Of a stretch of 64,000 nucleotides of DNA, positions 8,646-62,785 are shown in pieces. This stretch comes from an uncultured Candidatus Saccharibacteria bacterium (GTDB lineage: Bacteria > Patescibacteriota > Minisyncoccia > Phycocordibacterales > GWA1-40-21). Both the position numbers and the translations under genes were made by a program. The DNA lies in the NCBI GenBank assembly GCA_964513515.1, contig CAZEMP010000003.1:40927-104926 (forward strand), read 5' to 3'. Below the pieces are notes generated by a model that was not told the origin of the DNA, did not search any database, and was given only the letters and a program-made list of their open reading frames with translations. Numbering within the stretch: position 1 is the first letter of the stretch; the number at the start of each line of letters is the position of its first letter.

Positions 8646-8721
8646 TGGAGCCACCTCCCAGATTTGAACTGGGGACCTTCACTTTACAAAAGTGTTGCTC
8701 TACCAACTGAGCTAAGGTGGC
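8646..8721 (-). tRNA. tRNA-Thr (anticodon UGU)
   Basis: Reverse complement reads GCCACCTTAGCTCAGTTGGTAGAGCAACACTTTTGTAAAGTGAAGGTCCCCAGTTCAAATCTGGGAGGTGGCTCCA: 7-bp acceptor stem, GCTC/GAGC D-stem, anticodon loop TTTGTAA, T-arm GTTCAAATC, encoded CCA. Confidence 0.85.
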
Positions 8722-8809: not shown

Positions 8810-9217
8810 ATGAAATGTATAAACTGTAAAACAGAATTGAAGAGACGTTCCCAGATAAAATATTGTTCAAATAAATGCCAAATAGAACATCAGTATAAAA
8901 AGTACATAATTCAATGGAAAAAAGGTAAGAAAGATGGTACAAGAGGAATTTTAACTAAAAATATTTCAAAATATATAAAAAGATATTTTATAGAGAAAAA
9001 TGGAGAATCTTGCGTTTTGTGTGGTTGGAATAAAAAAAATTTATCGACAGGAAGAGTGCCGCTTGAAATCGATCATATTGATGGTGATTCAGAAAATAAT
9101 CTGGAAGAAAACTTAAAGCTTATTTGTCCAAATTGTCATTCACTTACAACAAATTTTAGGAATCTAAATAAAGGCAAAGGTAGGTTGTGGAGGAAAAATA
9201 AATATATTAGAAAGTAG
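8810..9217 (+). CDS. HNH endonuclease with N-terminal zinc ribbon
   Basis: CINCKTEL...C..C zinc ribbon; IDHIDGDSENN...LICPNCH HNH motif; extended -10 tggtataat just upstream. Confidence 0.75.
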   Translation: MKCINCKTELKRRSQIKYCSNKCQIEHQYKKYIIQWKKGKKDGTRGILTKNISKYIKRYFIEKNGESCVLCGWNKKNLSTGRVPLEIDHIDGDSENNLEENLKLICPNCHSLTTNFRNLNKGKGRLWRKNKYIRK

Positions 9218-9933: not shown

Positions 9934-11153
9934 GTTGTTGTTTTTGAAAATATAGTATTAACTACTGCGCCAACTAGCCAAAACGGAGTAATGACTGGAT
10001 ATATAAACATAAAATAAAATAGCTCAGGTTTTAATTTTAACTTCTCATTGGATAGTTTCATTGATATAAAAATCAATATTAGGCTAAAAATGAGTGTTAG
10101 CATTGCCATCACTGATAACAAGCTTGTGTTTATATAAAATAAATCAAACTCTGGTCGACTTAAAGCAAACCCCACCATTTCAAACTTTGATATTTGATCT
10201 AATATTCTATCTATATTTGAGACAATAATATTTGTTGTAAAATAAAGCGCAGAAAATACTGACAATACTCCAAAAGGAAGTATAAACATACTTAACTCTC
10301 CATATTCTCTCTTAAACAACATGTGTTTATAGTCAATCATATTTTTTATAAAACCATAAGCCCACCTTAGTCTTTGTTTATAGAGCGTTTTAATTGTATT
10401 GGGAGGAACAGTAAAAACAAATGATCTGTGGCTATTTGCAATTTTAAAGTGGTTTTCTTGCATTCTTAATGCCATTTCAAGATCTTCTGTTAGATATGCG
10501 TGTTTGTAAATACCGATTTGATCAAATACTTTTCTGCGAAATATTGTAAATGGACCAGGAGTTATATGTAGTGAATTTACATATGTTAAAATTTTTCTTA
10601 CAAAGATACTCCAATTATATTCAACATTTTGCATCTGTTGTATAACATTATTTGCTTTGTGTATTTTTATTGCCGGTACAACCGCCATTATTTTTTGATT
10701 TTCAAAATAAGGGATCATGTTTTTTAAAGCATCTTTATGTACAAAAGAATCAGCATCAAGACAGCCAACAAGATCAGATTTGCTATTTTCTATACCAAAA
10801 TTTAAGGCAGTATATTTACCACCATTTTTTTTATGATGAACTTGTACTTGAGGATTATTTTTAAAGATATTAAGAACTTTCAATGTATCGTCTGTACTGC
10901 CATCATCAATTACCATTATTATTAATTTATCTTTAGGATAGTCCAAATTTAGTAAAGAATTAACTGTGTTTATAACAGTTTTACTTTCATTCCAACAAGG
11001 AACAATTATTGTTGTGGATGGCCAGTTTTGTTTCTTTATCTCTAAATACTCTTTTTTTATATTTTCTCTTTTCTCTAAATATGTAATCAGTAAGAATATT
11101 TCAAAATATAATGAAAAAAACAAGAATATTTGCATTATTAAATCCGAAATCAT
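9924..11153 (-). CDS. processive family-2 glycosyltransferase (PgaC/IcaA/NodC-like synthase)
   Basis: DDGSTDDT, DAD, TED and QRLRWAYG (QxxRW) motifs with N- and C-terminal TM helices. Confidence 0.8.
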   Translation of the reverse strand: MISDLIMQIFLFFSLYFEIFLLITYLEKRENIKKEYLEIKKQNWPSTTIIVPCWNESKTVINTVNSLLNLDYPKDKLIIMVIDDGSTDDTLKVLNIFKNNPQVQVHHKKNGGKYTALNFGIENSKSDLVGCLDADSFVHKDALKNMIPYFENQKIMAVVPAIKIHKANNVIQQMQNVEYNWSIFVRKILTYVNSLHITPGPFTIFRRKVFDQIGIYKHAYLTEDLEMALRMQENHFKIANSHRSFVFTVPPNTIKTLYKQRLRWAYGFIKNMIDYKHMLFKREYGELSMFILPFGVLSVFSALYFTTNIIVSNIDRILDQISKFEMVGFALSRPEFDLFYINTSLLSVMAMLTLIFSLILIFISMKLSNEKLKLKPELFYFMFIYPVITPFWLVGAVVNTIFSKTTTWR

Positions 11154-11238
11154 TTCAACAATATAGCACTTTTTTTTAGTTTAGAATAGGTAGTTTGTCA
11201 GGGTTTATCTTTTTATAATTTTCTGTATAATCATAAAT

Positions 11239-12009
11239 ATGAATATAGAAGATACAGAACAGATTACTATTCATGTACATCCGATTACTCGTGTTATTAA
11301 TGACATCAATAGAATTTTCTTTGAGATGGGTTTTACGCTTATTGATGGACCAGAACTTGAAACAGAATATTATAATTTCGATGCCTTAAACGTTCCAAAA
11401 GATCATCCCGCACGTGATATGCAGGATACTTTTTGGCTAAAACCAAACAAAGATTTTTCTGGAGTAGAAAGAAGACTCATGCGCACTCACACATCTCCAA
11501 TGCAGGTTCACTTTATGGAAGAAAATAAAGATCTGCCTTTCAGGATTATTTGTCCAGGAAAAACTTACAGAAAAGAAGCTACAGATGCTACACACGAAAT
11601 ACAGTTTCAGCAATTTGAGGGTTTGTTTGTGGATAAGAATGTTTCTTTAGCTACTCTAAAATCAGTTTTAAATAAGTTTTTTGATGAATTTTTTGAAAAA
11701 GACATTGAGGTTAGATTTAGACCGAGTTATTTCCCCTTTGTTGAGCCTGGAGCAGAAATAGATATATCTTGTTTTAAATGTGCCGGCAAAAATCCTAACT
11801 GTTCTATTTGTAAGGGTACGGGTTGGGTAGAGGTTATGGGGGCAGGATTAGTACATCCAAAGGTTTTGAAAAATGTTGGAATAGATTCTAATGAATGGAA
11901 AGGTTTTGCTTTTGGTGGATCCGTAGAAAGATTGGCAATGATGAAATACGGCATAGATGATATCAGACTTTTTTATTCCGGAGATCTAAGGTTGGTTAAT
12001 CAATTCTAA
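11239..12009 (+). CDS. pheS: phenylalanine--tRNA ligase alpha subunit (short form)
   Basis: Class II aaRS core: [45 protein letters not shown]; lacks long N-terminal extension. Confidence 0.9.
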
Positions 12010-19124: not shown

Positions 19125-19162
19125 CTAGAAGCTAGAACCTAAAATCTAGCACCTAGTTTAGT
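19125..19162. repeat. CTAG-heptad short tandem repeat (ctagaag ctagaac ctaaaat ctagcac ctagttt)
   Basis: 7-bp periodic CTAGnnn units; related array at 28553-28630. Confidence 0.5.
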
Positions 19163-20147
19163 ATACAAACGTACTACATGATTTTGTTAGTATTGAACCA
19201 TTATTATTCACAGTGACGGTGGCTATTTTTGTTCCAGGAGAAGAATATGTTGTGGTTACTGAATTTTGATTCGAATAAAATGGATTTGATGGGTCTGATC
19301 CAGTCCAAGAGTATGAATAGTAGCCATTTCCACCAGAAACTACAGCATACCAAGTTACAGGGCTACCTACATATGATGTTTGTGGATAAGCATAACAATT
19401 TACACTTAAATTTGACCAACTATACAAAGTTCCGTATGGAAGAGTTATTGAGGGATTACTTCCATAGTTATAATTATAATTGTAAGAAGTACCTTCTATT
19501 TTAATAGGAACTGTAAGTAGGTTATTACTTTCAGAAACCTCTTCAATCATATTTAGTGGATCGGCTGTGATATATGCGTTATTTACACCTGTAGTTATTG
19601 GGCTATCAAATGTTGTTGTGAAAATAATCCTATCTCCTGGCTTTATAGAAACCTGATCTTCTGAATCGTAATAAGGAGTTGTTCTTGATGGTGTATTGAT
19701 TCTAAGTCTCCATGCACCAGTTACATTTGTTCCTATATTTTTTACTTGAAATCTAATTGCGATTTCGTCATTAAATCCTACATAATTTGTTGGAATAAAC
19801 TGTTTAGTTGTAGGATCTAGAATACCAGTACTGATAAGGGTAATCTCAAAGTCTGGATAACCTGAATATTTTTTTTGTACAGGTGAAGATACTGTTTTAT
19901 TTTCTGTTGCATTTGTAGTGTTCTCATTAGCATCATTTGCCTCTTTAGAAGATTTTTCCACGTCTGAAACAAGCATTGATGAAAGGGTGGTGGATACAAA
20001 GTTTGTACCATTACCAACCATATAGGGGATAGCCTTAAATGGAATCCATACCAAAAGTAATACTGCAAGGACAATTCCTGCTGGCATTAGTGCTGCATAG
20101 AATGATTCAAGCAACTTTTCCTTAGTTATTTTTGTGTCTTTTTCCAT
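19158..20147 (-). CDS. membrane-anchored surface protein with CARDB-like domain and Y/S/N-rich C-terminus
   Basis: N-terminal TM; EITLISTG..FQVKNIGTNVTGAWRLRI resembles CARDB; NYNYNYG and SGGNGYYSYSWTG low-complexity. Confidence 0.45.
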   Translation of the reverse strand: MEKDTKITKEKLLESFYAALMPAGIVLAVLLLVWIPFKAIPYMVGNGTNFVSTTLSSMLVSDVEKSSKEANDANENTTNATENKTVSSPVQKKYSGYPDFEITLISTGILDPTTKQFIPTNYVGFNDEIAIRFQVKNIGTNVTGAWRLRINTPSRTTPYYDSEDQVSIKPGDRIIFTTTFDSPITTGVNNAYITADPLNMIEEVSESNNLLTVPIKIEGTSYNYNYNYGSNPSITLPYGTLYSWSNLSVNCYAYPQTSYVGSPVTWYAVVSGGNGYYSYSWTGSDPSNPFYSNQNSVTTTYSSPGTKIATVTVNNNGSILTKSCSTFVY

Positions 20148-20232
20148 ATTTTTGATTAAGTTAATGAGCCACTATTGTACACTACTTGACTTTTAGTGTC
20201 AAGTTGATACAATTGTCACGAAATCCTGCATT

Positions 20233-20305
20233 TTGTCATTCCCGCGGAGGCGGGAATCTAGGTCGAATTAAATTAAACCTGGATCCCCGCGTTTGCGAGG
20301 ATGAC
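20233..20305. repeat. imperfect inverted-repeat element (copy A of palindromic element family)
   Basis: tgtcattcccgcggaggcgggaatctagg ... cctggatccccgcgtttgcgaggatgaca; arms each contain internal GC hairpin. Confidence 0.7.
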
Positions 20306-20336
20306 AATTCTAGAAATTACACACAAACGTATAAAT

Positions 20337-20969
20337 ATGATCGACAAGCATAAAAACACAGGGATCATAAGCTTAATTAGAGAAAATAAAGTGTATTTCT
20401 TTATTAATCTTTTTATTATATTGACCATGTCTTTTTCTATTTTGTATCTTCTCGGCTTAGTACCAGAGGAGTTTAAATATACTGTAGGAAGAGAACCACT
20501 TAAAGAATCTAAAGGAAATAGGACTGGAGAATTACCCCTAAGTATCAATATTCCAAATATTGGAATAGATTCTCAAATATACAATCCTGCTACAACATCA
20601 ATAGATGTTTTGGATAGCTATTTATTAAAAGGAGCTGTTAGATATCCTGGTTCTGGACTTTTGAACGGCGACGGAAATATTTTTCTTTTTGGACACAGTA
20701 CGGGTATAAGAATAGTAAACAATCAAGCATTCAAGGCTTTTAATGGTCTTAAGAATTTAAAAGGCGGAGATTTGATTTACGTTTATTCAGAAAAATATGA
20801 ATATACCTATAAAGTATTATCTGTAAAAACAATAAGTGCAGATAAAGCTTTGGTGGAGTTTAATACAGATAGCAGAATGTTAACTTTATCTACATGTGAT
20901 AGCTTTGGTGCAAAATCTGACAGAATTGTTGTACAATCTGAACTTGTGTCTAGAAAAAAGATAAATTAA
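20337..20969 (+). CDS. sortase (cysteine transpeptidase)
   Basis: N-terminal TM, LFGHSTG (His) and TLSTCD (Cys) sortase catalytic motifs; ORF-track start 20301 lies inside repeat, ATG 20337 preferred. Confidence 0.75.
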   Translation: MIDKHKNTGIISLIRENKVYFFINLFIILTMSFSILYLLGLVPEEFKYTVGREPLKESKGNRTGELPLSINIPNIGIDSQIYNPATTSIDVLDSYLLKGAVRYPGSGLLNGDGNIFLFGHSTGIRIVNNQAFKAFNGLKNLKGGDLIYVYSEKYEYTYKVLSVKTISADKALVEFNTDSRMLTLSTCDSFGAKSDRIVVQSELVSRKKIN

Positions 20970-20972
20970 AAA

Positions 20973-22721
20973 CTATTTTCTACTTACTTTTTCTTCGTTT
21001 ATTTTTTCAATAAACTCTTTCAAATCCATCTGCCCAAGCTGGCCTTTGTCGCGAGATTCTATAGATACTTTTTTAGCTTCAATGTCCTTATCTCCAATGA
21101 TTATTGTGTAAGGAATTTTATTATTTTTTGCATCTCTTATTTTTCCACCCATATTTCCTTCTCTAGTATCACAATCCACTCTAAAACCAAGATTTTTTAA
21201 TTCTTTTGCAACTTTTTCTGCATGATCATTATGATTTTCTCTGACAGGAACTATTTTTATTTGTACTGGGGAAAGCCAAAGAGGGAATGCACCGGCAAAA
21301 TGCTCTATCATTACACCCATAAATCTTTCAAGCGAGCCTGATATGGCTCTGTGTATAACGACAGGTCTTTCTAGAAGTCCTTTTTCATTTGTAAACGAAA
21401 GATCAAATCTTTCTGGTAAATTAAAATCACATTGTATTGTTGCGAGCTGTTGTTCTCGTCCGATGGCATCTTTAAACATAAAGTCGAGCTTTGGACCGTA
21501 AAATGCAGCTTCACCTTCAATTCTTTTGTAATTTAGTTTATTTTCTTTTGCAGAACTTTCTAGAGCCGACTCAGCTTTTTCCCACACTTCATCACCTCCT
21601 AAATATTTACTTTTATCATCTCCACGCACAGAAAGTCTTACCCAGTATCCGTCCATCATATTCATGGTGGTGTAAAAGTTTTTGATAATTTTTACGATTG
21701 TTCCAACTTCTTGCGAGATCTGATTTACTCTACAGAATAAATGCCCATCATCTTGAGTGATAGCCCTTACTCTTGTGAGCCCTGAAAGTTGTCCAGCTTT
21801 TTCATATCTATATACTGTAGCTGGTTCAAAATATCTGACAGGCATATCTCTGTATGAGAATTGATTGTCGCAGAATATCTGCATATGATGCGGACAGTTC
21901 ATCGGCTTCATATAGAATTCCTCATCACCTCCAGAAACTTTGAAAAGTTCATTTCCAAACTTTACTGCATGTCCTGAAGTTTCGTAAAGTGTTTTCTTTG
22001 TAATATGAGGAGTCCATACTCTGTCATAACCTTCATTTTTATGTAAATCCCAAAGATATTCTTCAATTTCTTTTCTTATTACCATTCCTTTTGGCTGCAA
22101 AAGAGGAAGTCCTGCTCCTATAAGATCTGAAATCGTAAATAGCTTTAGTTCCTTTCCAAGTTTTCTGTGATCTCTTTTTCTAGCCTCTTCTTGTTGTTTT
22201 TCATAAGCCTCAAGTTCTTCTTTAGAATTGAATGCAAGACCGTAAATTCTTGTAAGCATTTTATTTTTCTCATCTCCACGCCAATATGCACCAGCAATCC
22301 TATCTAGTTTGAAAGCGTCTTTTTTAATTTCTTTTACATCTTCAACGTGTCCTCCAGCACAGAAATCTAAAAAATCTCCAGATTTATAAGTAGTGAGCTT
22401 ATCTCCTTTATCCGCATGCTCTTTAATGAGTTCAAGTTTATAGGGATTCTTTGGAAAAATCTTTTCTGCTTCTTTTTGAGTAACTTCTGTTTTTTCAAAA
22501 CCCTTCCATTTTTTCAAAAGTTCTTTCATTTTTTGCTCAATCTTTCCTAGATCCTTGTCTGTAATAGGAGATGAAAATTCAAAGTCATAATAAAAACCAT
22601 TATCAATAGCTGGACCAATTGCCAAATGTGTATCTGGCCAAAGTTCTAATACAGATGCACCCAAAAGGTGAGCGAGAGAATGTCTTATTTGTTTTAATTT
22701 TTCTTCCATAATGTTTCTCAT
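20973..22721 (-). CDS. thrS: threonine--tRNA ligase (lacks N-terminal TGS domain)
   Basis: HSLAHLLG editing-domain motif, class II core and anticodon-binding domain; 582 aa. Confidence 0.9.
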   Translation of the reverse strand: MRNIMEEKLKQIRHSLAHLLGASVLELWPDTHLAIGPAIDNGFYYDFEFSSPITDKDLGKIEQKMKELLKKWKGFEKTEVTQKEAEKIFPKNPYKLELIKEHADKGDKLTTYKSGDFLDFCAGGHVEDVKEIKKDAFKLDRIAGAYWRGDEKNKMLTRIYGLAFNSKEELEAYEKQQEEARKRDHRKLGKELKLFTISDLIGAGLPLLQPKGMVIRKEIEEYLWDLHKNEGYDRVWTPHITKKTLYETSGHAVKFGNELFKVSGGDEEFYMKPMNCPHHMQIFCDNQFSYRDMPVRYFEPATVYRYEKAGQLSGLTRVRAITQDDGHLFCRVNQISQEVGTIVKIIKNFYTTMNMMDGYWVRLSVRGDDKSKYLGGDEVWEKAESALESSAKENKLNYKRIEGEAAFYGPKLDFMFKDAIGREQQLATIQCDFNLPERFDLSFTNEKGLLERPVVIHRAISGSLERFMGVMIEHFAGAFPLWLSPVQIKIVPVRENHNDHAEKVAKELKNLGFRVDCDTREGNMGGKIRDAKNNKIPYTIIIGDKDIEAKKVSIESRDKGQLGQMDLKEFIEKINEEKVSRK

Positions 22722-22788
22722 GTCTTTACGAGCAAAGCGAAGTAATCTAGGTTAATTTCTGGATTGCTTCGTTACACTCGCAATGACG
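22721..22788. repeat. imperfect inverted-repeat element (copy E), abutting thrS start codon
   Basis: tgtctttacgagcaaagcgaagtaatctagg ... ctggattgcttcgttacactcgcaatgacg. Confidence 0.7.
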
Positions 22789-22809: not shown

Positions 22810-22847
22810 GCCCCGACAAAAAACGATACTTCGTTTTTTGTCGGGGC
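22810..22847. terminator. long perfect hairpin terminator (bidirectional)
   Basis: gccccgacaaaaaacga-tact-tcgttttttgtcggggc, 17-bp stem, flanked by A/T runs; downstream of dnaE. Confidence 0.75.
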
Positions 22848-22992
22848 GATTCATGACCGCGGTTCCACCCGATTTTTTACTCTTTATATAGAAATTTTTC
22901 TTACCCAAAGAAAATTATTTAGAATTTTGACGGGTATTGTGGTTGGTAGCCACTAATTTCTATATCTCTATAATAGTCAATTAGCTTTTTGA

Positions 22993-23070
22993 TGTCAAAC
23001 CCTGTAGTAGATTTTGGCATTACGCATTCGCGTTTGAAAAACAATGCCAAAATTCACTACGGGGTCAAAC
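22993..23070. repeat. distinct long inverted repeat just 3' of dnaE stop
   Basis: gtcaaaccctgtagtagattttggcatt ... aatgccaaaattcactacggggtcaaac (about 28-bp arms, 22-bp spacer). Confidence 0.65.
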
Positions 23071-28552: not shown

Positions 28553-28630
28553 TAGTTGCTAGGTTCTAGGTTTTAGAAACATTTAAAATTTCTAACTAGA
28601 AACTAGAAGCTAAAACCTAACACCTAATTT
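28553..28630. repeat. CTAG-heptad iteron-like array arranged as inverted halves, directly upstream of rnc
   Basis: ctagttg ctaggtt ctaggtt ttagaaa ... aactaga aactaga agctaaa acctaac acctaat; right half nearly identical to 19125-19162. Confidence 0.55.
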
Positions 28631-32503: not shown

Positions 32504-32540
32504 TATAAGGAGCTAGTATAAGTATAAGAAAATATAAAAG

Positions 32541-32573: not shown

Positions 32574-32610
32574 GTGTCTTTGCGAGGAGTAGAGCGACGT
32601 GGCAATCCAG
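32574..32610. repeat. solo arm of palindromic element family
   Basis: tgtctttgcgaggagtagagcgacgtggcaatccagg matches left arms of copies C/E; no right arm. Confidence 0.55.
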
Positions 32611-32701
32611 GTTTAGTTTAATTGTTGAGTGGAGTCAATCTATTTTATAAAAATGAAATGGGCTCCACGTAAACAAACGCGGAGCCCATTTTCACTCGGT
32701 G

Positions 32702-36863: not shown

Positions 36864-38534
36864 ATGACTCAAAAAGATGCACTCGACATATTGAAGATGG
36901 GATACAACTGTTACATCACAGGTGCAGCAGGTTCTGGTAAAACACATCTACTAAATGAATATATAAAATTCCTTAAAAATAAAGGAGTTGAAGCCGGTAT
37001 TACAGCATCTACCGGTATTGCAGCGACTCATATGGGCGGTACGACTATTCATTCTTGGAGCGGGCTTGGTATTCGTGATGAGCTTACAGAATACGATCTT
37101 GAAGATCTAGAAAGTAAAAAATATCTCCATGATAGATTTAAAAATACCGATGTCCTCATCATAGACGAGGTTTCAATGCTCCATCATTTTCGTCTGGACT
37201 TAATAGAGAAAATCGCAAGACATTTAAAAAGGAACCAACTTCCGTTTGGTGGCATGCAAGTTATTCTTTGCGGAGATTTTTTCCAGCTTCCACCAGTATC
37301 AAGAATGGGCGAAAGAGAAGCACTTTTTTCTTATAAATCAGAAATTTGGAAAAATCTCAATTTGAAAATCTGTTATTTGGAGGAGCAATATAGACATAAG
37401 GATAATATTTTCATAAAAATTCTCAACGGCATACGCGGGAACAATATGAGTGAAGAATCTTTATCTCATCTAAGAGGAAGACATAATGCAAAATTAAAAG
37501 AAGGATTGGAACCAACAAAACTCCATACTCATAATATAAATGTTGATACTATAAACGATGGAGAATTAAACAGTCTTCCTGGTCAGATTTTTACATATCA
37601 GATGGAAGATAAAGGAAGAAAGGCCCTTGTAGATGCACTGAAAAAAAGCTGTCTTGCACCCGAATTATTGCGTTTAAAAGTTGGTGCAAGGGTGATGTTT
37701 GTTAAAAATAATTTTGATGGGGGCTATGCAAATGGAACTCTTGGAAAGATAATAGAATGTTCAAATTATGGCCCCAAAGTATTGCTTACTTCGGGGAAAA
37801 TAATTATTCCAGAAAAAGTCTCTTGGGTTATAGAAGAAGATGGAAAAGTAAAAGCCACTATCACTCAATATCCGCTTCGTTTGGCTTGGGCCATCACTGT
37901 ACATAAAAGCCAAGGAATGAGCTTAGATGCAGTTGAGGTAGATCTTTCAAAATCTTTTGAAAAGGGAATGGGTTACGTTGCTCTTTCTCGTGTAAGGACA
38001 CTAGACGGACTCAGACTTATCGGTATGAACAAGAACGCCTTAGAAGTGAGCGAAGATATTATGTTGTATGATGAGGATCTTAAAGAAATGTCTGATCAAG
38101 ACAAATCCTGGCTATATTCCATGTCTGATACTGAAATAAAGAAAAAACAAGAAGAGTTTTTGAAGAAAGTTGCACCGCCCGAAGGTACAAAAATTGATAA
38201 AAAGAAAAAAAGTAGAATTTCACCAATTGAGGAAACAAAAAATATGCTCAAGCAAGAAATGGGGCTAAAGGAAATGTTGGAAATAAAAGGTGTAAAAATT
38301 GGAACACTACTTGATCATATAGAGAAGATTATTGTAGATGAACCAGATTTTAATATTGCTCATTTGAAAAAGGAAGTGCCAACTGGAAAATATAAAAAAA
38401 TATGGATGGTATTTCGTGAACTTTATGGAGAGAATCGTGATTTTCTGCTTTCTCCAATAAAAAATAAGCTTGGATCAGCTTATACATATGAGGAGCTAAG
38501 AATTGTAAGACTTTTTGTGAAGAGAAATCTTTGA
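36864..38534 (+). CDS. Pif1/RecD-family ATP-dependent DNA helicase with C-terminal extension
   Basis: Walker A GAAGSGKTH, motif ILCGDFFQLPPV, LAWAITVHKSQGMSLD; about 120-aa uncharacterised C-terminal tail. Confidence 0.75.
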   Translation: MTQKDALDILKMGYNCYITGAAGSGKTHLLNEYIKFLKNKGVEAGITASTGIAATHMGGTTIHSWSGLGIRDELTEYDLEDLESKKYLHDRFKNTDVLIIDEVSMLHHFRLDLIEKIARHLKRNQLPFGGMQVILCGDFFQLPPVSRMGEREALFSYKSEIWKNLNLKICYLEEQYRHKDNIFIKILNGIRGNNMSEESLSHLRGRHNAKLKEGLEPTKLHTHNINVDTINDGELNSLPGQIFTYQMEDKGRKALVDALKKSCLAPELLRLKVGARVMFVKNNFDGGYANGTLGKIIECSNYGPKVLLTSGKIIIPEKVSWVIEEDGKVKATITQYPLRLAWAITVHKSQGMSLDAVEVDLSKSFEKGMGYVALSRVRTLDGLRLIGMNKNALEVSEDIMLYDEDLKEMSDQDKSWLYSMSDTEIKKKQEEFLKKVAPPEGTKIDKKKKSRISPIEETKNMLKQEMGLKEMLEIKGVKIGTLLDHIEKIIVDEPDFNIAHLKKEVPTGKYKKIWMVFRELYGENRDFLLSPIKNKLGSAYTYEELRIVRLFVKRNL

Positions 38535-38570
38535 AATTATCTGTTATAATATTCCTATATGGAACAAGTG
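38490..38570. repeat. about 80-bp unit U (3' end of Pif1 CDS + -10/leaderless start region), intact copy
   Basis: gagctaagaattgtaagactttttgtgaagagaaatctttgaaattatctgttataatattcctatatggaacaag; second split copy at 40484-40520 + 40956-40993. Confidence 0.7.
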
Positions 38571-40463
38571 AACGATAATTTAGATACACCTCAAACGTCT
38601 AAATTTATAAAGTGGTATTTATTAGCCTCAATTATATTTTCTTTTACACAAATAATTCTGAATCTCTTTTTTTATTATCATAAAGTTCCTAGTTTTTTAA
38701 TGATTTTATGGTACACAATAAATTTTATATGGTTAGTTTTTAATATAGTTACTATCACGATAATATTTGTAAAGAAATTTAAAAAGAAGTATCTTGTTGT
38801 TCCAATTCTATATTTCTTAGAAAATCTTATTATTCCAATTGCAGTGATTGTAGCTACTATATTATACATTAATTTTTTAGGCATTGTTGAGCTAACTAAT
38901 AATGAAACATTACTAATTGCTATCACAATTTCTTCAGTTTTTTATTTAGGAATGACAATACTATCATGTCTGTTTATTTTTACATTACAAAAAAATAGTT
39001 TATTGTTATGGATAATCGGAGGAGTTGCTTTAGTATCTGTGGTTACGATTATTTTCCCGGTAATAAAATATTTTTCAAAGGATATAAATCAAGAGAAAAA
39101 ATATATTCAAACATCGGTAGAGACTATAAAAAGATCTTTGGCTGGTCCATCTCCAACTAAAAAAGATTGGGCAATTTATACAAATTTAGATTATAAATTT
39201 TCTATCGAGTATCCATGGGAATATGAAGCAGAAAATTATTATCCAGGTGGTACTTATATGAGTACATATGAAATTAATACCATAGATCTACCCACATTGG
39301 ATCCAGATAAGAAAATTTACCTTACTTTAATGACTTTCAGTGATACAAGTGTAAATGATTACAAAAAAAATTGGGAATATGTTGGTGGCAAACCAGAGGA
39401 GCTTCGTTTTTATTATTCACTCCCAAAAATGCGAGAGGCAATCACTTTATCTTTAGGACAATCTTGCCAGGTATTAGATGAAAATAATATTCGTTATTCA
39501 GAAGCGCCAAGTCGTCCTTGTACGGTGACTTCGATAGATGGACAAGTAGCACTTCAGATTATGCCAGCCCCATATTCTATTGATACTTATATAACTTACT
39601 TTATTCCAAGGGAAGATTCGATGTGGTTAGAAATTCGTAAGATTCCAAGTAGTTACAGTGATGAAGTAATGAATACCCTAAAACTTGAATCATTAACAGC
39701 ATCTCAAAATGTACAACAGTTAATTCAGCCGGTTTTAGTAAAAGATTTACAAGAAGAAACTTTAAAACAATTGGGGTGGTCATGGTATGGCCCAACTCCT
39801 GTTTATGGTTCCATTTTAGATTGGGCTGATATAAACACTCTTGAAATATACAAAGGTACTCCGTATGTTAAAGATAAAAATGGAGTATATAGTTCATATT
39901 TTGGTGGAATATCAAGAATGGAAGGAGCTGATCCAAATACATTTATTGTTTATAGTTATGAACTTGCAAAAGACAAAAATCATATCTACATTACTGGAGT
40001 AACAGAATATCCTCAGGATCTAGATGTGCCAACATTTCAAAAAGTTGGTGCGAATTATTTTAAAGATAAAAACTTAGTTTATTTAGGAGATGTAATTTTT
40101 GAAAAAAAATACAACCAGTTATCACATTGGCGTCTAGAAAAAATTTTGGAATTACATGCACCAACTTTTCAATATTTGAATATTTGTGGTTGTGTTGAAA
40201 AATCTTGTACTTTTTACACTAAAGATAAACAAGGTGTGTATTGTGGTTATGATAATAATTTTGAAAAAATTCAAGGAGCAGATTCTTCGACCTTTGAGTA
40301 TGTCGAATCATATTCTCCAGGTGAAATGTTAAATTCTGGTATCGCAAAGGATAAATTTTGTGTATATAACGGTGGCGAAAAAGTTGTTGATGCAAATAAT
40401 GTATGTATAAATCCTAGTACCTGTACAAGTGATAATTTGGTCGCCGGCTGTGGATTAAAATAA
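38559..40463 (+). CDS. polytopic membrane protein with C-terminal DKNYY-type repeats
   Basis: About 6 N-terminal TM helices; repeats DKNGVYSSYFGG / KDKNHIYITG / KDKNLVYLGD / KDKQGVYCGYD / KDKFCVYNGG resemble DKNYY family repeats. Confidence 0.55.
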   Translation: MEQVNDNLDTPQTSKFIKWYLLASIIFSFTQIILNLFFYYHKVPSFLMILWYTINFIWLVFNIVTITIIFVKKFKKKYLVVPILYFLENLIIPIAVIVATILYINFLGIVELTNNETLLIAITISSVFYLGMTILSCLFIFTLQKNSLLLWIIGGVALVSVVTIIFPVIKYFSKDINQEKKYIQTSVETIKRSLAGPSPTKKDWAIYTNLDYKFSIEYPWEYEAENYYPGGTYMSTYEINTIDLPTLDPDKKIYLTLMTFSDTSVNDYKKNWEYVGGKPEELRFYYSLPKMREAITLSLGQSCQVLDENNIRYSEAPSRPCTVTSIDGQVALQIMPAPYSIDTYITYFIPREDSMWLEIRKIPSSYSDEVMNTLKLESLTASQNVQQLIQPVLVKDLQEETLKQLGWSWYGPTPVYGSILDWADINTLEIYKGTPYVKDKNGVYSSYFGGISRMEGADPNTFIVYSYELAKDKNHIYITGVTEYPQDLDVPTFQKVGANYFKDKNLVYLGDVIFEKKYNQLSHWRLEKILELHAPTFQYLNICGCVEKSCTFYTKDKQGVYCGYDNNFEKIQGADSSTFEYVESYSPGEMLNSGIAKDKFCVYNGGEKVVDANNVCINPSTCTSDNLVAGCGLK

Positions 40464-40483
40464 ATTATTACTGTCACCTCTTA

Positions 40484-40520
40484 AGAGTTGAGAATTGTAA
40501 GACTTTTTGTGAAGAGGAAT
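40484..40520. repeat. copy 2a of unit U (duplicate of Pif1 3' end, noncoding here)
   Basis: gagttgagaattgtaagactttttgtgaagaggaat: 33/36 identity to 38494-38529. Confidence 0.7.
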
Positions 40521-44923: not shown

Positions 44924-45065
44924 AATTTAAATGTAAAGTTAAAAATGAAAAATGTAAAAATAAAATCATTTTATATCATCACAATTACTTGATATTGTAT
45001 CATTTATAAAATACAAATCAAAAGGTTGGTTTTTCCTTATACTTATACTAAATACTTATACTACT

Positions 45066-56490: not shown

Positions 56491-56562
56491 TGTCATCCTC
56501 GCGGATGCGGGGATCCAGAATTAATATAATCTGGATTGCCACGCTTTGCTCGCAATGACACA
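56491..56562. repeat. imperfect inverted-repeat element (copy B, hybrid arms)
   Basis: tgtcatcctcgcggatgcggggatccag ... ctggattgccacgctttgctcgcaatgacaca. Confidence 0.7.
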
Positions 56563-58003: not shown

Positions 58004-58093
58004 AAGCTAGTTTTTATCGACTTGCCTAATATAATATAAGTTTGTACAATTATAGACGTATAAAGGTCGTTTTAATTATTTAATTAAAAAACA

Positions 58094-58306
58094 ATGACAA
58101 AACTTAATTGGTTAGATTGGACAGCACTTGTCCTTGTAACTGTTGGAGGTTTGAATTGGGGACTAGAAGCTTTGAATTGGAACTTGGTTGATGCACTTTT
58201 TGGTGCTGAATCAATGCTTTCAACAGCTGTTTACGCTCTTGTAGGGCTATCAGCTCTATACATGATATATTTGTCAAAGAGACTTATGTCAGATTCATCA
58301 ATGTAA
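58094..58306 (+). CDS. DUF378-family small membrane protein
   Basis: GGLNWGLEALNWNLVDALFG matches DUF378 pattern. Confidence 0.6.
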   Translation: MTKLNWLDWTALVLVTVGGLNWGLEALNWNLVDALFGAESMLSTAVYALVGLSALYMIYLSKRLMSDSSM

Positions 58307-58325
58307 TTTCATTGAGATCTAAAAC

Positions 58326-58364
58326 AAAAAACTATTTACCAACGGTAAGTAGTTTTTTGTTTTG
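58326..58364 (+). terminator. rho-independent terminator
   Basis: aaaaactatttacc-aacg-gtaagtagtttttt. Confidence 0.65.
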
Positions 58365-58399
58365 AACTTGGTAAGATGTATGAATTACATAAAGTTGAA

Positions 58400-58476
58400 T
58401 GTCTTTGCGAGTATAACGAAGCAATCCAGGCTAATTAAACCTTACTCTGGATTGCCACGCTACGCTCGCAAAGACG
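58400..58476. repeat. imperfect inverted-repeat element (copy C)
   Basis: tgtctttgcgagtataacgaagcaatccagg ... ctggattgccacgctacgctcgcaaagacg. Confidence 0.7.
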
Positions 58477-58497
58477 TAATATAAAAAACGTAAACAG

Positions 58498-62708: not shown

Positions 62709-62785
62709 TGTGTCATTCCCGTGAAGACGGGAATCTAGGTTGTGTTGAATTAATTCTGGTTTCCCACCTGCGCGAGAATGACACA
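62709..62785. repeat. imperfect inverted-repeat element (copy D)
   Basis: tgtgtcattcccgtgaagacgggaatctagg ... ctggtttcccacctgcgcgagaatgacaca. Confidence 0.7.

Follow-up and report, generated by a model that had tools for sequence, protein, structure and literature searches.

Short intergenic repeats were analysed in 64,000 nucleotides of contig CAZEMP010000003.1 from an uncultured Candidatus Saccharibacteria bacterium; this whole stretch is called the window. The repeat arms are CGTC/TGTC-tagged repetitive extragenic palindromic (REP) sequences, the same thing as the NTS/SRM motifs, and they are arranged as tail-to-tail dimers. The elements probably belong to the widespread, previously described class of NTS/SRM repeats targeted by the small nuclease Ssn, here in an ultra-small Patescibacteria (Paceibacterota-like) genome. 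An earlier sequence-only reading had called them REP-like, and this stood, the precise class being the CGTC/TGTC-tagged REPs.

The CGTC-tagged REPs have an unpaired CGTC tag at one end (often TGTC, with CCTC allowed), an 8-9 bp stem with A-T/T-A as its first two pairs, a 4-5 nt loop and a CCA tail; they are mainly intergenic and mostly head-to-head dimers with frequent heterodimers, and they have no known transposase (PMC3733652). The superfamily takes in the Rickettsia RPE-6/RPE-4 and Wolbachia CGTC-4 repeats (PMC3733652). The Neisseria NTS (an extended dRS3 repeat) has the consensus CGTCATTCCCGCGMAVGCGGGAATCYRG, and related motifs, called SRM, are searched for with the pattern HGTCWYN(0-2)YYVSBRHN(0-5)WNVSBRGN(0-2)RNCYNB (PMC11893778). 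The NTS/SRM are spatially tied to ssn, the gene of a 94-aa single-domain GIY-YIG protein of the cd10448 type, which binds NTS and cuts it a few nt 5' of the tag, solely as single-stranded DNA (ssDNA), and makes transformation by NTS-flanked DNA less frequent; binding and cleavage are known for the Neisseria and Wolbachia enzymes only (PMC11893778). The sequence-only reading had laid its emphasis on folding of the transcript, for which the literature gives no support; the enzyme acts on ssDNA and not on RNA or double-stranded DNA (PMC11893778).

Repeat arms, dimers and their folding

A hidden Markov model (HMM) built from the arms recovered exactly 11 arms in the window (E 6e-7 to 3e-3), all of them alignable, and the best rejected match was well apart from these at E=15. 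The tag/tail pattern TGTCWTN{16,26}ATCYAG gave 9 window matches, while 0.49 +/- 0.66 were expected from 100 shuffles. The 11 arms form five tail-to-tail dimers (A-E) and one solo arm; in the dimers the tags point outward and the tails inward, with a short AT-rich spacer between. The result is in accordance with the sequence-only reading, which had described five copies and a solo arm with two arm flavours, and the arm alignment and HMM uphold the flavours as type 1 and type 2. The spacers, earlier given as 12-17 bp, measured 6-15 nt. The hybrid of both types, which had been taken to be copy B, is the copy at 56491-56562, listed below as dimer C. The arms and dimers are as follows.

20234-20306: dimer A, type-1/type-1, spacer TCGAATTAAATTAAA(C); ssDNA fold -20.3 kcal/mol, z -4.7
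20234-20262 (+): arm A_L, type 1, TGTC-ATTCCCGC-GGAG-GCGGGAAT-CTAGG, 8-bp stem and 4-nt loop, -8.9 kcal/mol
20278-20306 (-): arm A_R, type 1, TGTC-ATCCTCGC-AAAC-GCGGGGAT-CCAGG, -6.2 kcal/mol; exact match to the SRM pattern
22721-22788: dimer B, type-2/type-2, 6-nt spacer; fold z -4.0
22721-22751 (+): arm B_L, type 2, outer stem TTAC/GTAA, tail CTAGG
22758-22788 (-): arm B_R, type 2, CGTCATTGCGAGTGTAACGAAGCAATCCAGA
32575-32611 (+): solo arm, long class of type 2 (TGTCTTTGCGAGGAGTAGAGCGACGTGGCAATCCAGG), with a spacer-like remnant GTTTAGTTTAATTG after it
56491-56560: dimer C, hybrid of a type-1 left arm and a type-2 right arm, 10-nt spacer; weakest fold, z -2.6
56491-56519 (+): arm C_L, type 1, TGTCATCCTCGCGGATGCGGGGATCCAGA, -6.4 kcal/mol; match to the SRM pattern
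56530-56560 (-): arm C_R, type 2, TGTCATTGCGAGCAAAGCGTGGCAATCCAGA; top HMM match, E 6e-7
58400-58476: dimer D, type-2/type-2, arms at 58400-58430 (+) and 58446-58476 (-); strongest long hairpin, -21 to -22.5 kcal/mol, z -7
62711-62783: dimer E, type-1/type-1, arms at 62711-62739 (+) and 62755-62783 (-), spacer TTGTGTTGAATTAATT

The type-1 arms are thus A_L, A_R, C_L, E_L and E_R, and the type-2 arms B_L, B_R, C_R, D_L, D_R and the solo arm. All arms aligned start with (T/C)GTC(A/T)T and finish with ATC(C/T)AG(G/A). The tag is TGTC in 9 of the 11 arms and CGTC in the other 2, the tail is CCA in eight and CTA in three, and GTC and ATC were found in every arm but E_R, where AAC stands. The window copies are mutually ~71-83% identical, dimers A and E being 78% identical (family D2), in DNA of 33.8% G+C. 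Arms A_R and C_L share the 5' flank TTCTAG(A/T)AT (pair I2), and an ENA metagenome contig (L001) is 100% identical to the window over dimers A and B. The Rfam search of the window gave nothing above the gathering threshold except one tRNA, and on the repeats only chance-level miRNA-like matches.

The tag, the tail and the intergenic dimer arrangement of the window arms agree with those of CGTC-tagged REPs, dimer C being a heterodimer. The type-1 arms, laid out as a TGTC tag, an 8-bp stem beginning AT, a 4-nt loop and a CCA/CTA tail, also lie within the published range of stem and loop, and the type-2 arms lie outside it. The published SRM pattern was matched exactly by three arms, and the mismatches to the NTS consensus numbered 2/28 for A_L, 3 for E_L and 4 for E_R. 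Four type-1 arms fold alone as DNA at -6.2 to -8.9 kcal/mol; the hairpin of E_R is weak (-1.8 kcal/mol, with only 7 predicted pairs).

The pairing in the type-1 stem was analysed by a covariation test on arms picked solely by tag, tail and position beside ssn, together with the type-1 arms of the window. The test revealed that 97% of cells were paired in the 8-bp hairpin, while the slid-partner controls gave only 18-40% pairing. Double-sided changes were found in 48 cells, compared to 9.0 +/- 2.4 in shuffles, a value reached in 0/500 shuffles. The type-1-like hairpin is maintained by selection.

The type-2 arms have the same tag and tail, but only the (A)TTGC/GCAA(T) pairs, which surround the core GAG-N5-CG(A/T)(A/G); the outer stem is 4-5 bp and the interior 10-18 nt. 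Their consensus is (C/T)GTC(A/T)TTGCGAG-[C-GNA-G or longer mini-hairpin]-CGAAGCAATCCAG. Among 56 distinct type-2 arms from elsewhere the insert was mostly C-GNA-G (CGAAG, CGCAG, CGGAG, CGTAG), the others being longer self-complementary pieces such as CCGCGCCTTGCGCGG or GCCCTTGGGGC, and inner stems of at least 4 bp occurred 4 times compared to 0.4 in shuffles. B_L shows a compensatory change in the outer stem, TTAC/GTAA in place of the usual TTGC/GCAA. Owing to the self-complementarity of the insert and this compensatory change, type 2 is read as a putative bipartite hairpin with a purine-rich internal loop. Mini-hairpins of the d(GCGAAGC) type with GNA loops are unusually stable, and the energy model misses such stability. 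Folded as a whole, the dimers give long hairpins, z ranging from -2.6 (hybrid C) to -7.1; in hybrid C the two arms are not mutual inverted repeats except at tag and tail.

In Patescibacteria the type-2 arms have spacers in common with classical Ssn-type arms, and hybrid dimers combine the two, which points either to one machinery for both types or to a second, unrecognised nuclease specificity. It is conceivable, though the claim is a tentative one, that the type-2 arms are a repeat class of their own with a bipartite hairpin, very widespread and apparently not described before. The peptides encoded by type-2 arms were absent from the intragenic-repeat lists in the supplements of PMC3733652. 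A literature text search with the arm DNA strings returned primer noise only, and one with the arm-encoded peptides returned nothing.

Association with ssn and copying among relatives

The position of arms relative to ssn was surveyed with the strict published SRM pattern at 80 metagenome loci from an Ssn alignment search, 77 of which were evaluable. An arm within 150 bp, tags out, was present at 49/77 loci and on both sides at 25/77, and the median distance of the arm tail to ssn was 18 nt at the start and 10 nt at the stop. The scans of viral contigs (at least 120 loci each) indicated that both arm types are extremely widespread there, in contigs of 30-72% G+C. In four viral loci (L176, L140, L184 and L175) a typical ssn lies directly between a + arm and a - arm. 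Locus L229 holds an arm, a 19-codon ssn remnant and another arm, and is a deletion intermediate. Neighbour-gene clustering around the arms at viral loci was uninformative, being dominated by high-GC shadow open reading frames (ORFs), and the viral scan for genes bracketed by type-2 arms, with GCAATCCAGN{295,325}CTGGATTGC, gave 36 matches, all of them chance matches inside phage genes.

An AT-rich Ssn query found 7,678 homologues, some of them named by NCBI as Patescibacteria group, Candidatus Woesebacteria (complete genome CP065002.1) or Candidatus Moranbacteria. In the Patescibacteria contigs the ssn gene is bracketed by TGTC-tagged arms, and therefore the lineage has a nuclease-repeat pair. 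One such contig (L421) carries an arm identical to A_L of the window, and two others (L423 and L424) carry a dimer with the spacer AATTAAATTCA just upstream of ssn.

A small nuclease of a near relative (L288) was considered as the partner of the repeats in this lineage. This 89-aa GIY-YIG protein (PF01541) is homologous to Ssn (hhalign 97%), but it was rejected, as it is without the KKWxRxWKLxLIExxNPxWxDL C-terminus and without flanking arms, and its nearest PDB entry is the UPF0213 structure 1zg2. In L288 its UPF0213-like gene (1488-1757) separates pheS from a glycosyltransferase gene; in the window this interval is only 85 bp long (11153-11239). An HNH endonuclease ORF of the window (8810-9217, +), beside a tRNA (8649-8721), is in turn missing from L288; small stand-alone nuclease genes thus vary between near relatives. 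A second UPF0213-like GIY-YIG gene (94 aa) was seen at L423 18400-18880, right after a tRNA-like sequence whose 3' end (…CCTGCCTCCCCAGCCA) is repeated after the gene; a separate small element may have integrated there at a tRNA gene.

Other arrangements were observed around ssn and arms. Upstream of ssn in the metagenome contig L377 (29% GC) the loop of one arm contains a second arm. Tandem whole or half arms stand beside ssn in L229, L313, L321 and L322, e.g. TGTCATTCCCGCTTCGCCT four times over. In IMG/VR contigs (e.g. L166, L156, L240, L155) single type-1 arms lie immediately 5' of ORFs in the same orientation, with the tail CCAGGAG ~8-12 nt before the ATG, doubling as a Shine-Dalgarno-like sequence.

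A dimer-specific pattern, run on the genome collection, matched 61 loci. Roughly half of them came from metagenome-assembled genomes (MAGs) of Patescibacteria (Saccharibacteria, Paceibacterota, Nomura-, Taylor- and Vogelbacteria), and the remainder mainly from Proteobacteria; the Patescibacteria copies mostly have TGTC and the proteobacterial copies mostly CGTC. Spacers of the family TTRWRTTRAAYTAATT turn up across Patescibacteria classes (Saccharibacteria, Vogelbacteria and the near relatives), in type-2 dimers too. The whole dimer is the copied unit, because this spacer family is shared together with the arms across relatives. A copy in MAG CAIJUJ01 shares 91% identity with dimer E, and the two spacers are identical. 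The first 30 nt of B_R are identical to the left arm of the Saccharibacteria locus L294, and the solo arm corresponds to the long right arm of a short/long type-2 dimer in the same locus.

The nearest relatives in the collection were MAG JBDRJU01 and a Candidatus Paceibacterota MAG, at ~80% nucleotide identity. In L288 a dimer stands between the rpmE terminator and the prfA ATG, a site that is empty in the window, and L252 has a copy upstream of dnaE, where the window has none. Dimers C and D are missing at the orthologous sites of L270. The copies in L252 and L270, which belong to one genome, are nearly identical and have 12-13 nt of flank in common on both sides, indicating recent copying in the lineage. 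The interval from the helicase gene to the alkylation-repair gene (58004-58400) is ~390 bp longer in the window than in L270 (6501-6607); the extra ~390 bp hold a 70-aa membrane-protein-like ORF (58094..58306, with a GGLNWGL motif), a terminator and dimer D.

Proposed mechanism and rival explanations

In the favoured explanation the arm would be an oriented single-strand recognition module with an unpaired (Y)GTC tag, a hairpin starting with A-T/T-A and a tail beginning with C (CCAG/CTAG). Following the literature on Ssn, the sense arm would fold when the DNA is single-stranded, during replication or during uptake in natural transformation, and a ~95-aa GIY-YIG nuclease of the Ssn family would bind the hairpin and the following C and nick a few nt 5' of the tag. 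The window copies may be targets of an Ssn from elsewhere in the genome; the ssn gene would lie outside the window or have been lost. Because one sense arm lies on the 5' side of each strand of a dimer, a nick in either strand would be expected immediately outside the element. The polarity of the dimers is that of the arms bracketing ssn, and hence the window dimers look like ssn-less, non-autonomous miniatures of an arm-ssn-arm unit, from which they may have been derived through deletion. The consequence could be that incoming or exposed ssDNA is cut beside the repeats, modulating recombination as in Neisseria, and/or that the repeats themselves spread. Effects on neighbours would be incidental, with hairpins lying in 5' leaders such as that of thrS.

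Several results weigh against this explanation. The search for ssn or another GIY-YIG gene in the window was negative by six-frame regex, by tblastn (best E 0.58) and by Pfam on 58 ORFs, which also gave no transposase or Y1_Tnp and showed one HNH endonuclease gene. In the near relative L288 the sole GIY-YIG gene seen is the UPF0213-like one, without the Ssn motif or arms. No type-2 arm matches the SRM pattern, and no gene bracketed by type-2 arms was found among the loci examined. The type-2 arms, the solo arm included, fold alone no better than shuffles; the earlier view of each arm as a hairpin therefore stood for type 1, with four stable arms and a weak E_R, and not for type 2.

The lack of ssn in 64 kb, the low identity among the window copies, the single solo arm, the weak E_R and the poor arm-arm pairing of the hybrid are also what would be seen if the repeats were orphan or fossil dimers of SRM type, left by a past invasion in a genome that no longer encodes Ssn, with decaying copies and incidental effects. 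This alternative is unlikely, though it deserves some weight. Against it stand the near relative with its two nearly identical copies sharing flanks (L252, L270), the four intact type-1 hairpins, the existence of ssn with matching arms in Patescibacteria, and the report that 81% of SRM-rich genomes carry ssn (PMC11893778). An origin as host cis-acting sequences without a dedicated nuclease, i.e. RNA hairpins tuning mRNA stability or translation, or palindromic protein-binding sites, appears improbable. Cis-acting roles have been proposed for E. coli REPs. All window copies are intergenic, four dimers end 0-48 nt ahead of the longest-ORF start of a gene and B lies inside the thrS leader, and Di Nocera et al. 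argue for the transcription of many REPs (PMC3733652). However, the neighbours of the copies are unrelated, no recurrent neighbour gene was found around the arms among the 61 genome-collection loci, and copies are not kept at orthologous sites in the ~80%-identity relatives. The same arms occur across the whole G+C range given above, viral contigs included, and Ssn is inactive on RNA (PMC11893778). The repeats are also not the terminators, since canonical ones adjoin B, D and the solo arm. A cis-acting effect on an adjacent gene could coexist with the favoured explanation.

Two further readings, in which the repeats are moved by a transposase, are both highly improbable. REP doublets forming hairpins (REPINs), mobilised by RAYT, a Y1 HUH transposase of IS200/IS605 type, share the architecture of two inverted REPs with a short spacer and a long hairpin (PMC3116915), and a weak Y1_Tnp (IS200/RAYT-like) gene lies 3.6 kb from ssn in Candidatus Woesebacteria (L422 13935-14600, CP065002.1). 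Yet the arm HMM found no arms beside this gene, all arms carry the tag (C/T)GTC and not GTAG/GTGG, the window has no Y1_Tnp, and the gene bracketed by arms in the 77-locus survey is the GIY-YIG gene ssn. Di Nocera et al. likewise found no tyrosine transposase flanked by CGTC repeats (PMC3733652). The inverted termini TGTCAT...ATGACA, the length of ~70 bp, the intergenic position and the presence or absence among relatives would suit classical miniature inverted-repeat transposable elements (MITEs), which are deletion derivatives of DDE-type insertion sequences with terminal inverted repeats and target-site duplications. The sequence-only reading had called the repeats MITE-like and had raised target-site duplications; however, no direct repeat flanks any of dimers A-E, nor the filled site in L288. 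Moreover, the arms of hybrid C differ internally, each type-1 arm forms a hairpin by itself and varies in a compensatory way, which a terminal inverted repeat would not be expected to do, the window contains neither a DDE nor a Y1 transposase, and the only longer unit with the same termini carries the nuclease gene ssn. The MITE-like description holds by analogy, in the polarity shared with the ssn bracket, the whole-unit copying with shared spacers and the presence or absence between relatives, and it fails in the missing duplications and transposase and in the hybrid.

Genomic context, other repeats and known systems

The earlier statement that all copies are intergenic was borne out for A-E and the solo arm. 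Among the Patescibacteria loci, co-directional, divergent and convergent gene contexts were all seen around the repeats. The contexts in the window are as follows.

Dimer A: between a CARDB-domain gene (-) and a sortase gene (+), with a promoter-like site at 20186-20213 just upstream
20973..22721 (-): thrS, whose ATG at 22721 abuts dimer B
Dimer B: between a T-box terminator (22847-22810) and the thrS ATG, inside the thrS leader
Solo arm: after the terminator of SMC
Dimer C: upstream of a DEAD-box helicase gene
Dimer D: between the terminator of the 70-aa ORF 58094..58306 and a DNA-alkylation-repair gene (ATG 58498)
Dimer E: between a 130-aa hypothetical ORF (-) and a CAP-domain gene (+)

An element within the thrS leader had been proposed from the sequence, and it is dimer B, downstream of a T-box that scored below threshold (33.2 bits, compared to the Rfam gathering score of 93; E 9e-6, local search). 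The copy abutting thrS is hence the one at 22721-22788 and not, as had been stated, the one at 62709. A probable divergent T-box leader before thrS was located at 22839-23068 (-), with a perfect AAUCGGGUGGAACCGCG box and a promoter-like site at 22998-22970. The claim that copy A overlaps the sortase start is true of the longest ORF, which begins at ATG 20301 within arm A_R; the ENA gene call on the identical contig puts the start at 20427, 121 nt beyond dimer A, and there the overlap is lost. Spurious ORFs cross the elements, e.g. 20186..20353 and 58362..58484, as had been anticipated.

Other repeats were seen in the window. A 45-nt direct repeat, 84% identical, stands at 38484-38528 (3' end of a PIF1-like helicase gene) and at 40476-40520 (after the DKNYY-family gene 38559..40463), and it looks as if the DKNYY-family gene was inserted with a target duplication. 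A second short, CTAG-rich repeat (CTAGAAGCTAGAACCTAAAATCTAGCACCTAG-like) occurs at 19129-19163 and 28593-28630 and inverted at 28556-28580, with sites beside the gyrB/CARDB terminator and shortly before the RNase III gene. Two gene ends carry the motif AGTATAAGTATAAG, 32515-32528 (+, after SMC) and 45036-45049 (-, after a 366-aa ORF), and both sites fall within a 39-nt inverted match of 85%.

The analysis places in Patescibacteria a repeat-nuclease system that was explained in 2025 (NTS/SRM with Ssn). Patescibacteria are unmentioned in Di Nocera 2013 (PMC3733652) and Chenal 2025 (PMC11893778), and a full-text literature search gave no paper linking Patescibacteria with REPs or MITEs. The element belongs to a known kind; what may be new are the type-2 arms, the hybrid dimers and their partner, and the type-2 arms and hybrid dimers point to a specificity not yet described. 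For annotation, the repeats account for spurious ORFs and for wrongly called starts, examples being the sortase ATG, which falls inside an arm, and the thrS start abutting one. The elements could also mark lineages, since they are insertion-polymorphic between close relatives. Saccharibacteria are cultivated Patescibacteria that are naturally competent and genetically tractable (PMC10633639), so that an effect of Ssn on transformation of the Neisseria type would be directly testable there. More speculatively, the repeat-nuclease pairs of Patescibacteria could be a main control on the recombination of incoming ssDNA, given the natural competence of Saccharibacteria and the reduced genomes of the group; equally, Ssn could drive a new GIY-YIG-based single-strand transposition.

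In comparison with known systems, the Neisseria NTS/Ssn pair has the same oriented GTC tag, hairpin beginning ATTCCC and C after the palindrome, is likewise multi-copy and intergenic, and has arms that bracket ssn in the same polarity, Patescibacteria included. It differs in the tag, which is CGTC there and TGTC in the window, as in most Patescibacteria copies. The window shows compact dimers with a conserved AT-rich spacer, type-2 arms outside the SRM pattern and no ssn, and the host is a candidate-phyla-radiation bacterium, a group absent from PMC11893778. The CGTC-1 REPs are alike in the unpaired tag, the 8-bp A-T/T-A stem, the 4-nt loop, the CCA-like tail of ~3 nt, the head-to-head dimers and the heterodimers. 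The type-2 arms depart from the CGTC-tagged REPs in that their outer stem around GAG-(C-GNA-G)-CGAA is only 4-5 bp long, and the five phyla covered in PMC3733652 did not include Patescibacteria.

The REPIN-RAYT system (PMC3116915) is similar in several points: it replicates as a pair of inverted REPs around a short spacer, REPs that stand alone are remnants, repeats bracket a single-copy cognate gene, and recognition is of a single-strand hairpin. It differs in the GTAG tag, compared to CGTC/TGTC, and in the use of a Y1 HUH transposase in place of a GIY-YIG nickase, and no association of the present repeats with RAYT was seen. The Correia/NEMIS MITEs are also small, non-coding, inverted-repeat, intergenic and polymorphic elements, with sites in 5' leaders and spurious ORFs. 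The window elements are unlike them in having neither target-site duplication nor a DDE parent insertion sequence, and in that their arms are mixable, autonomous hairpin modules.

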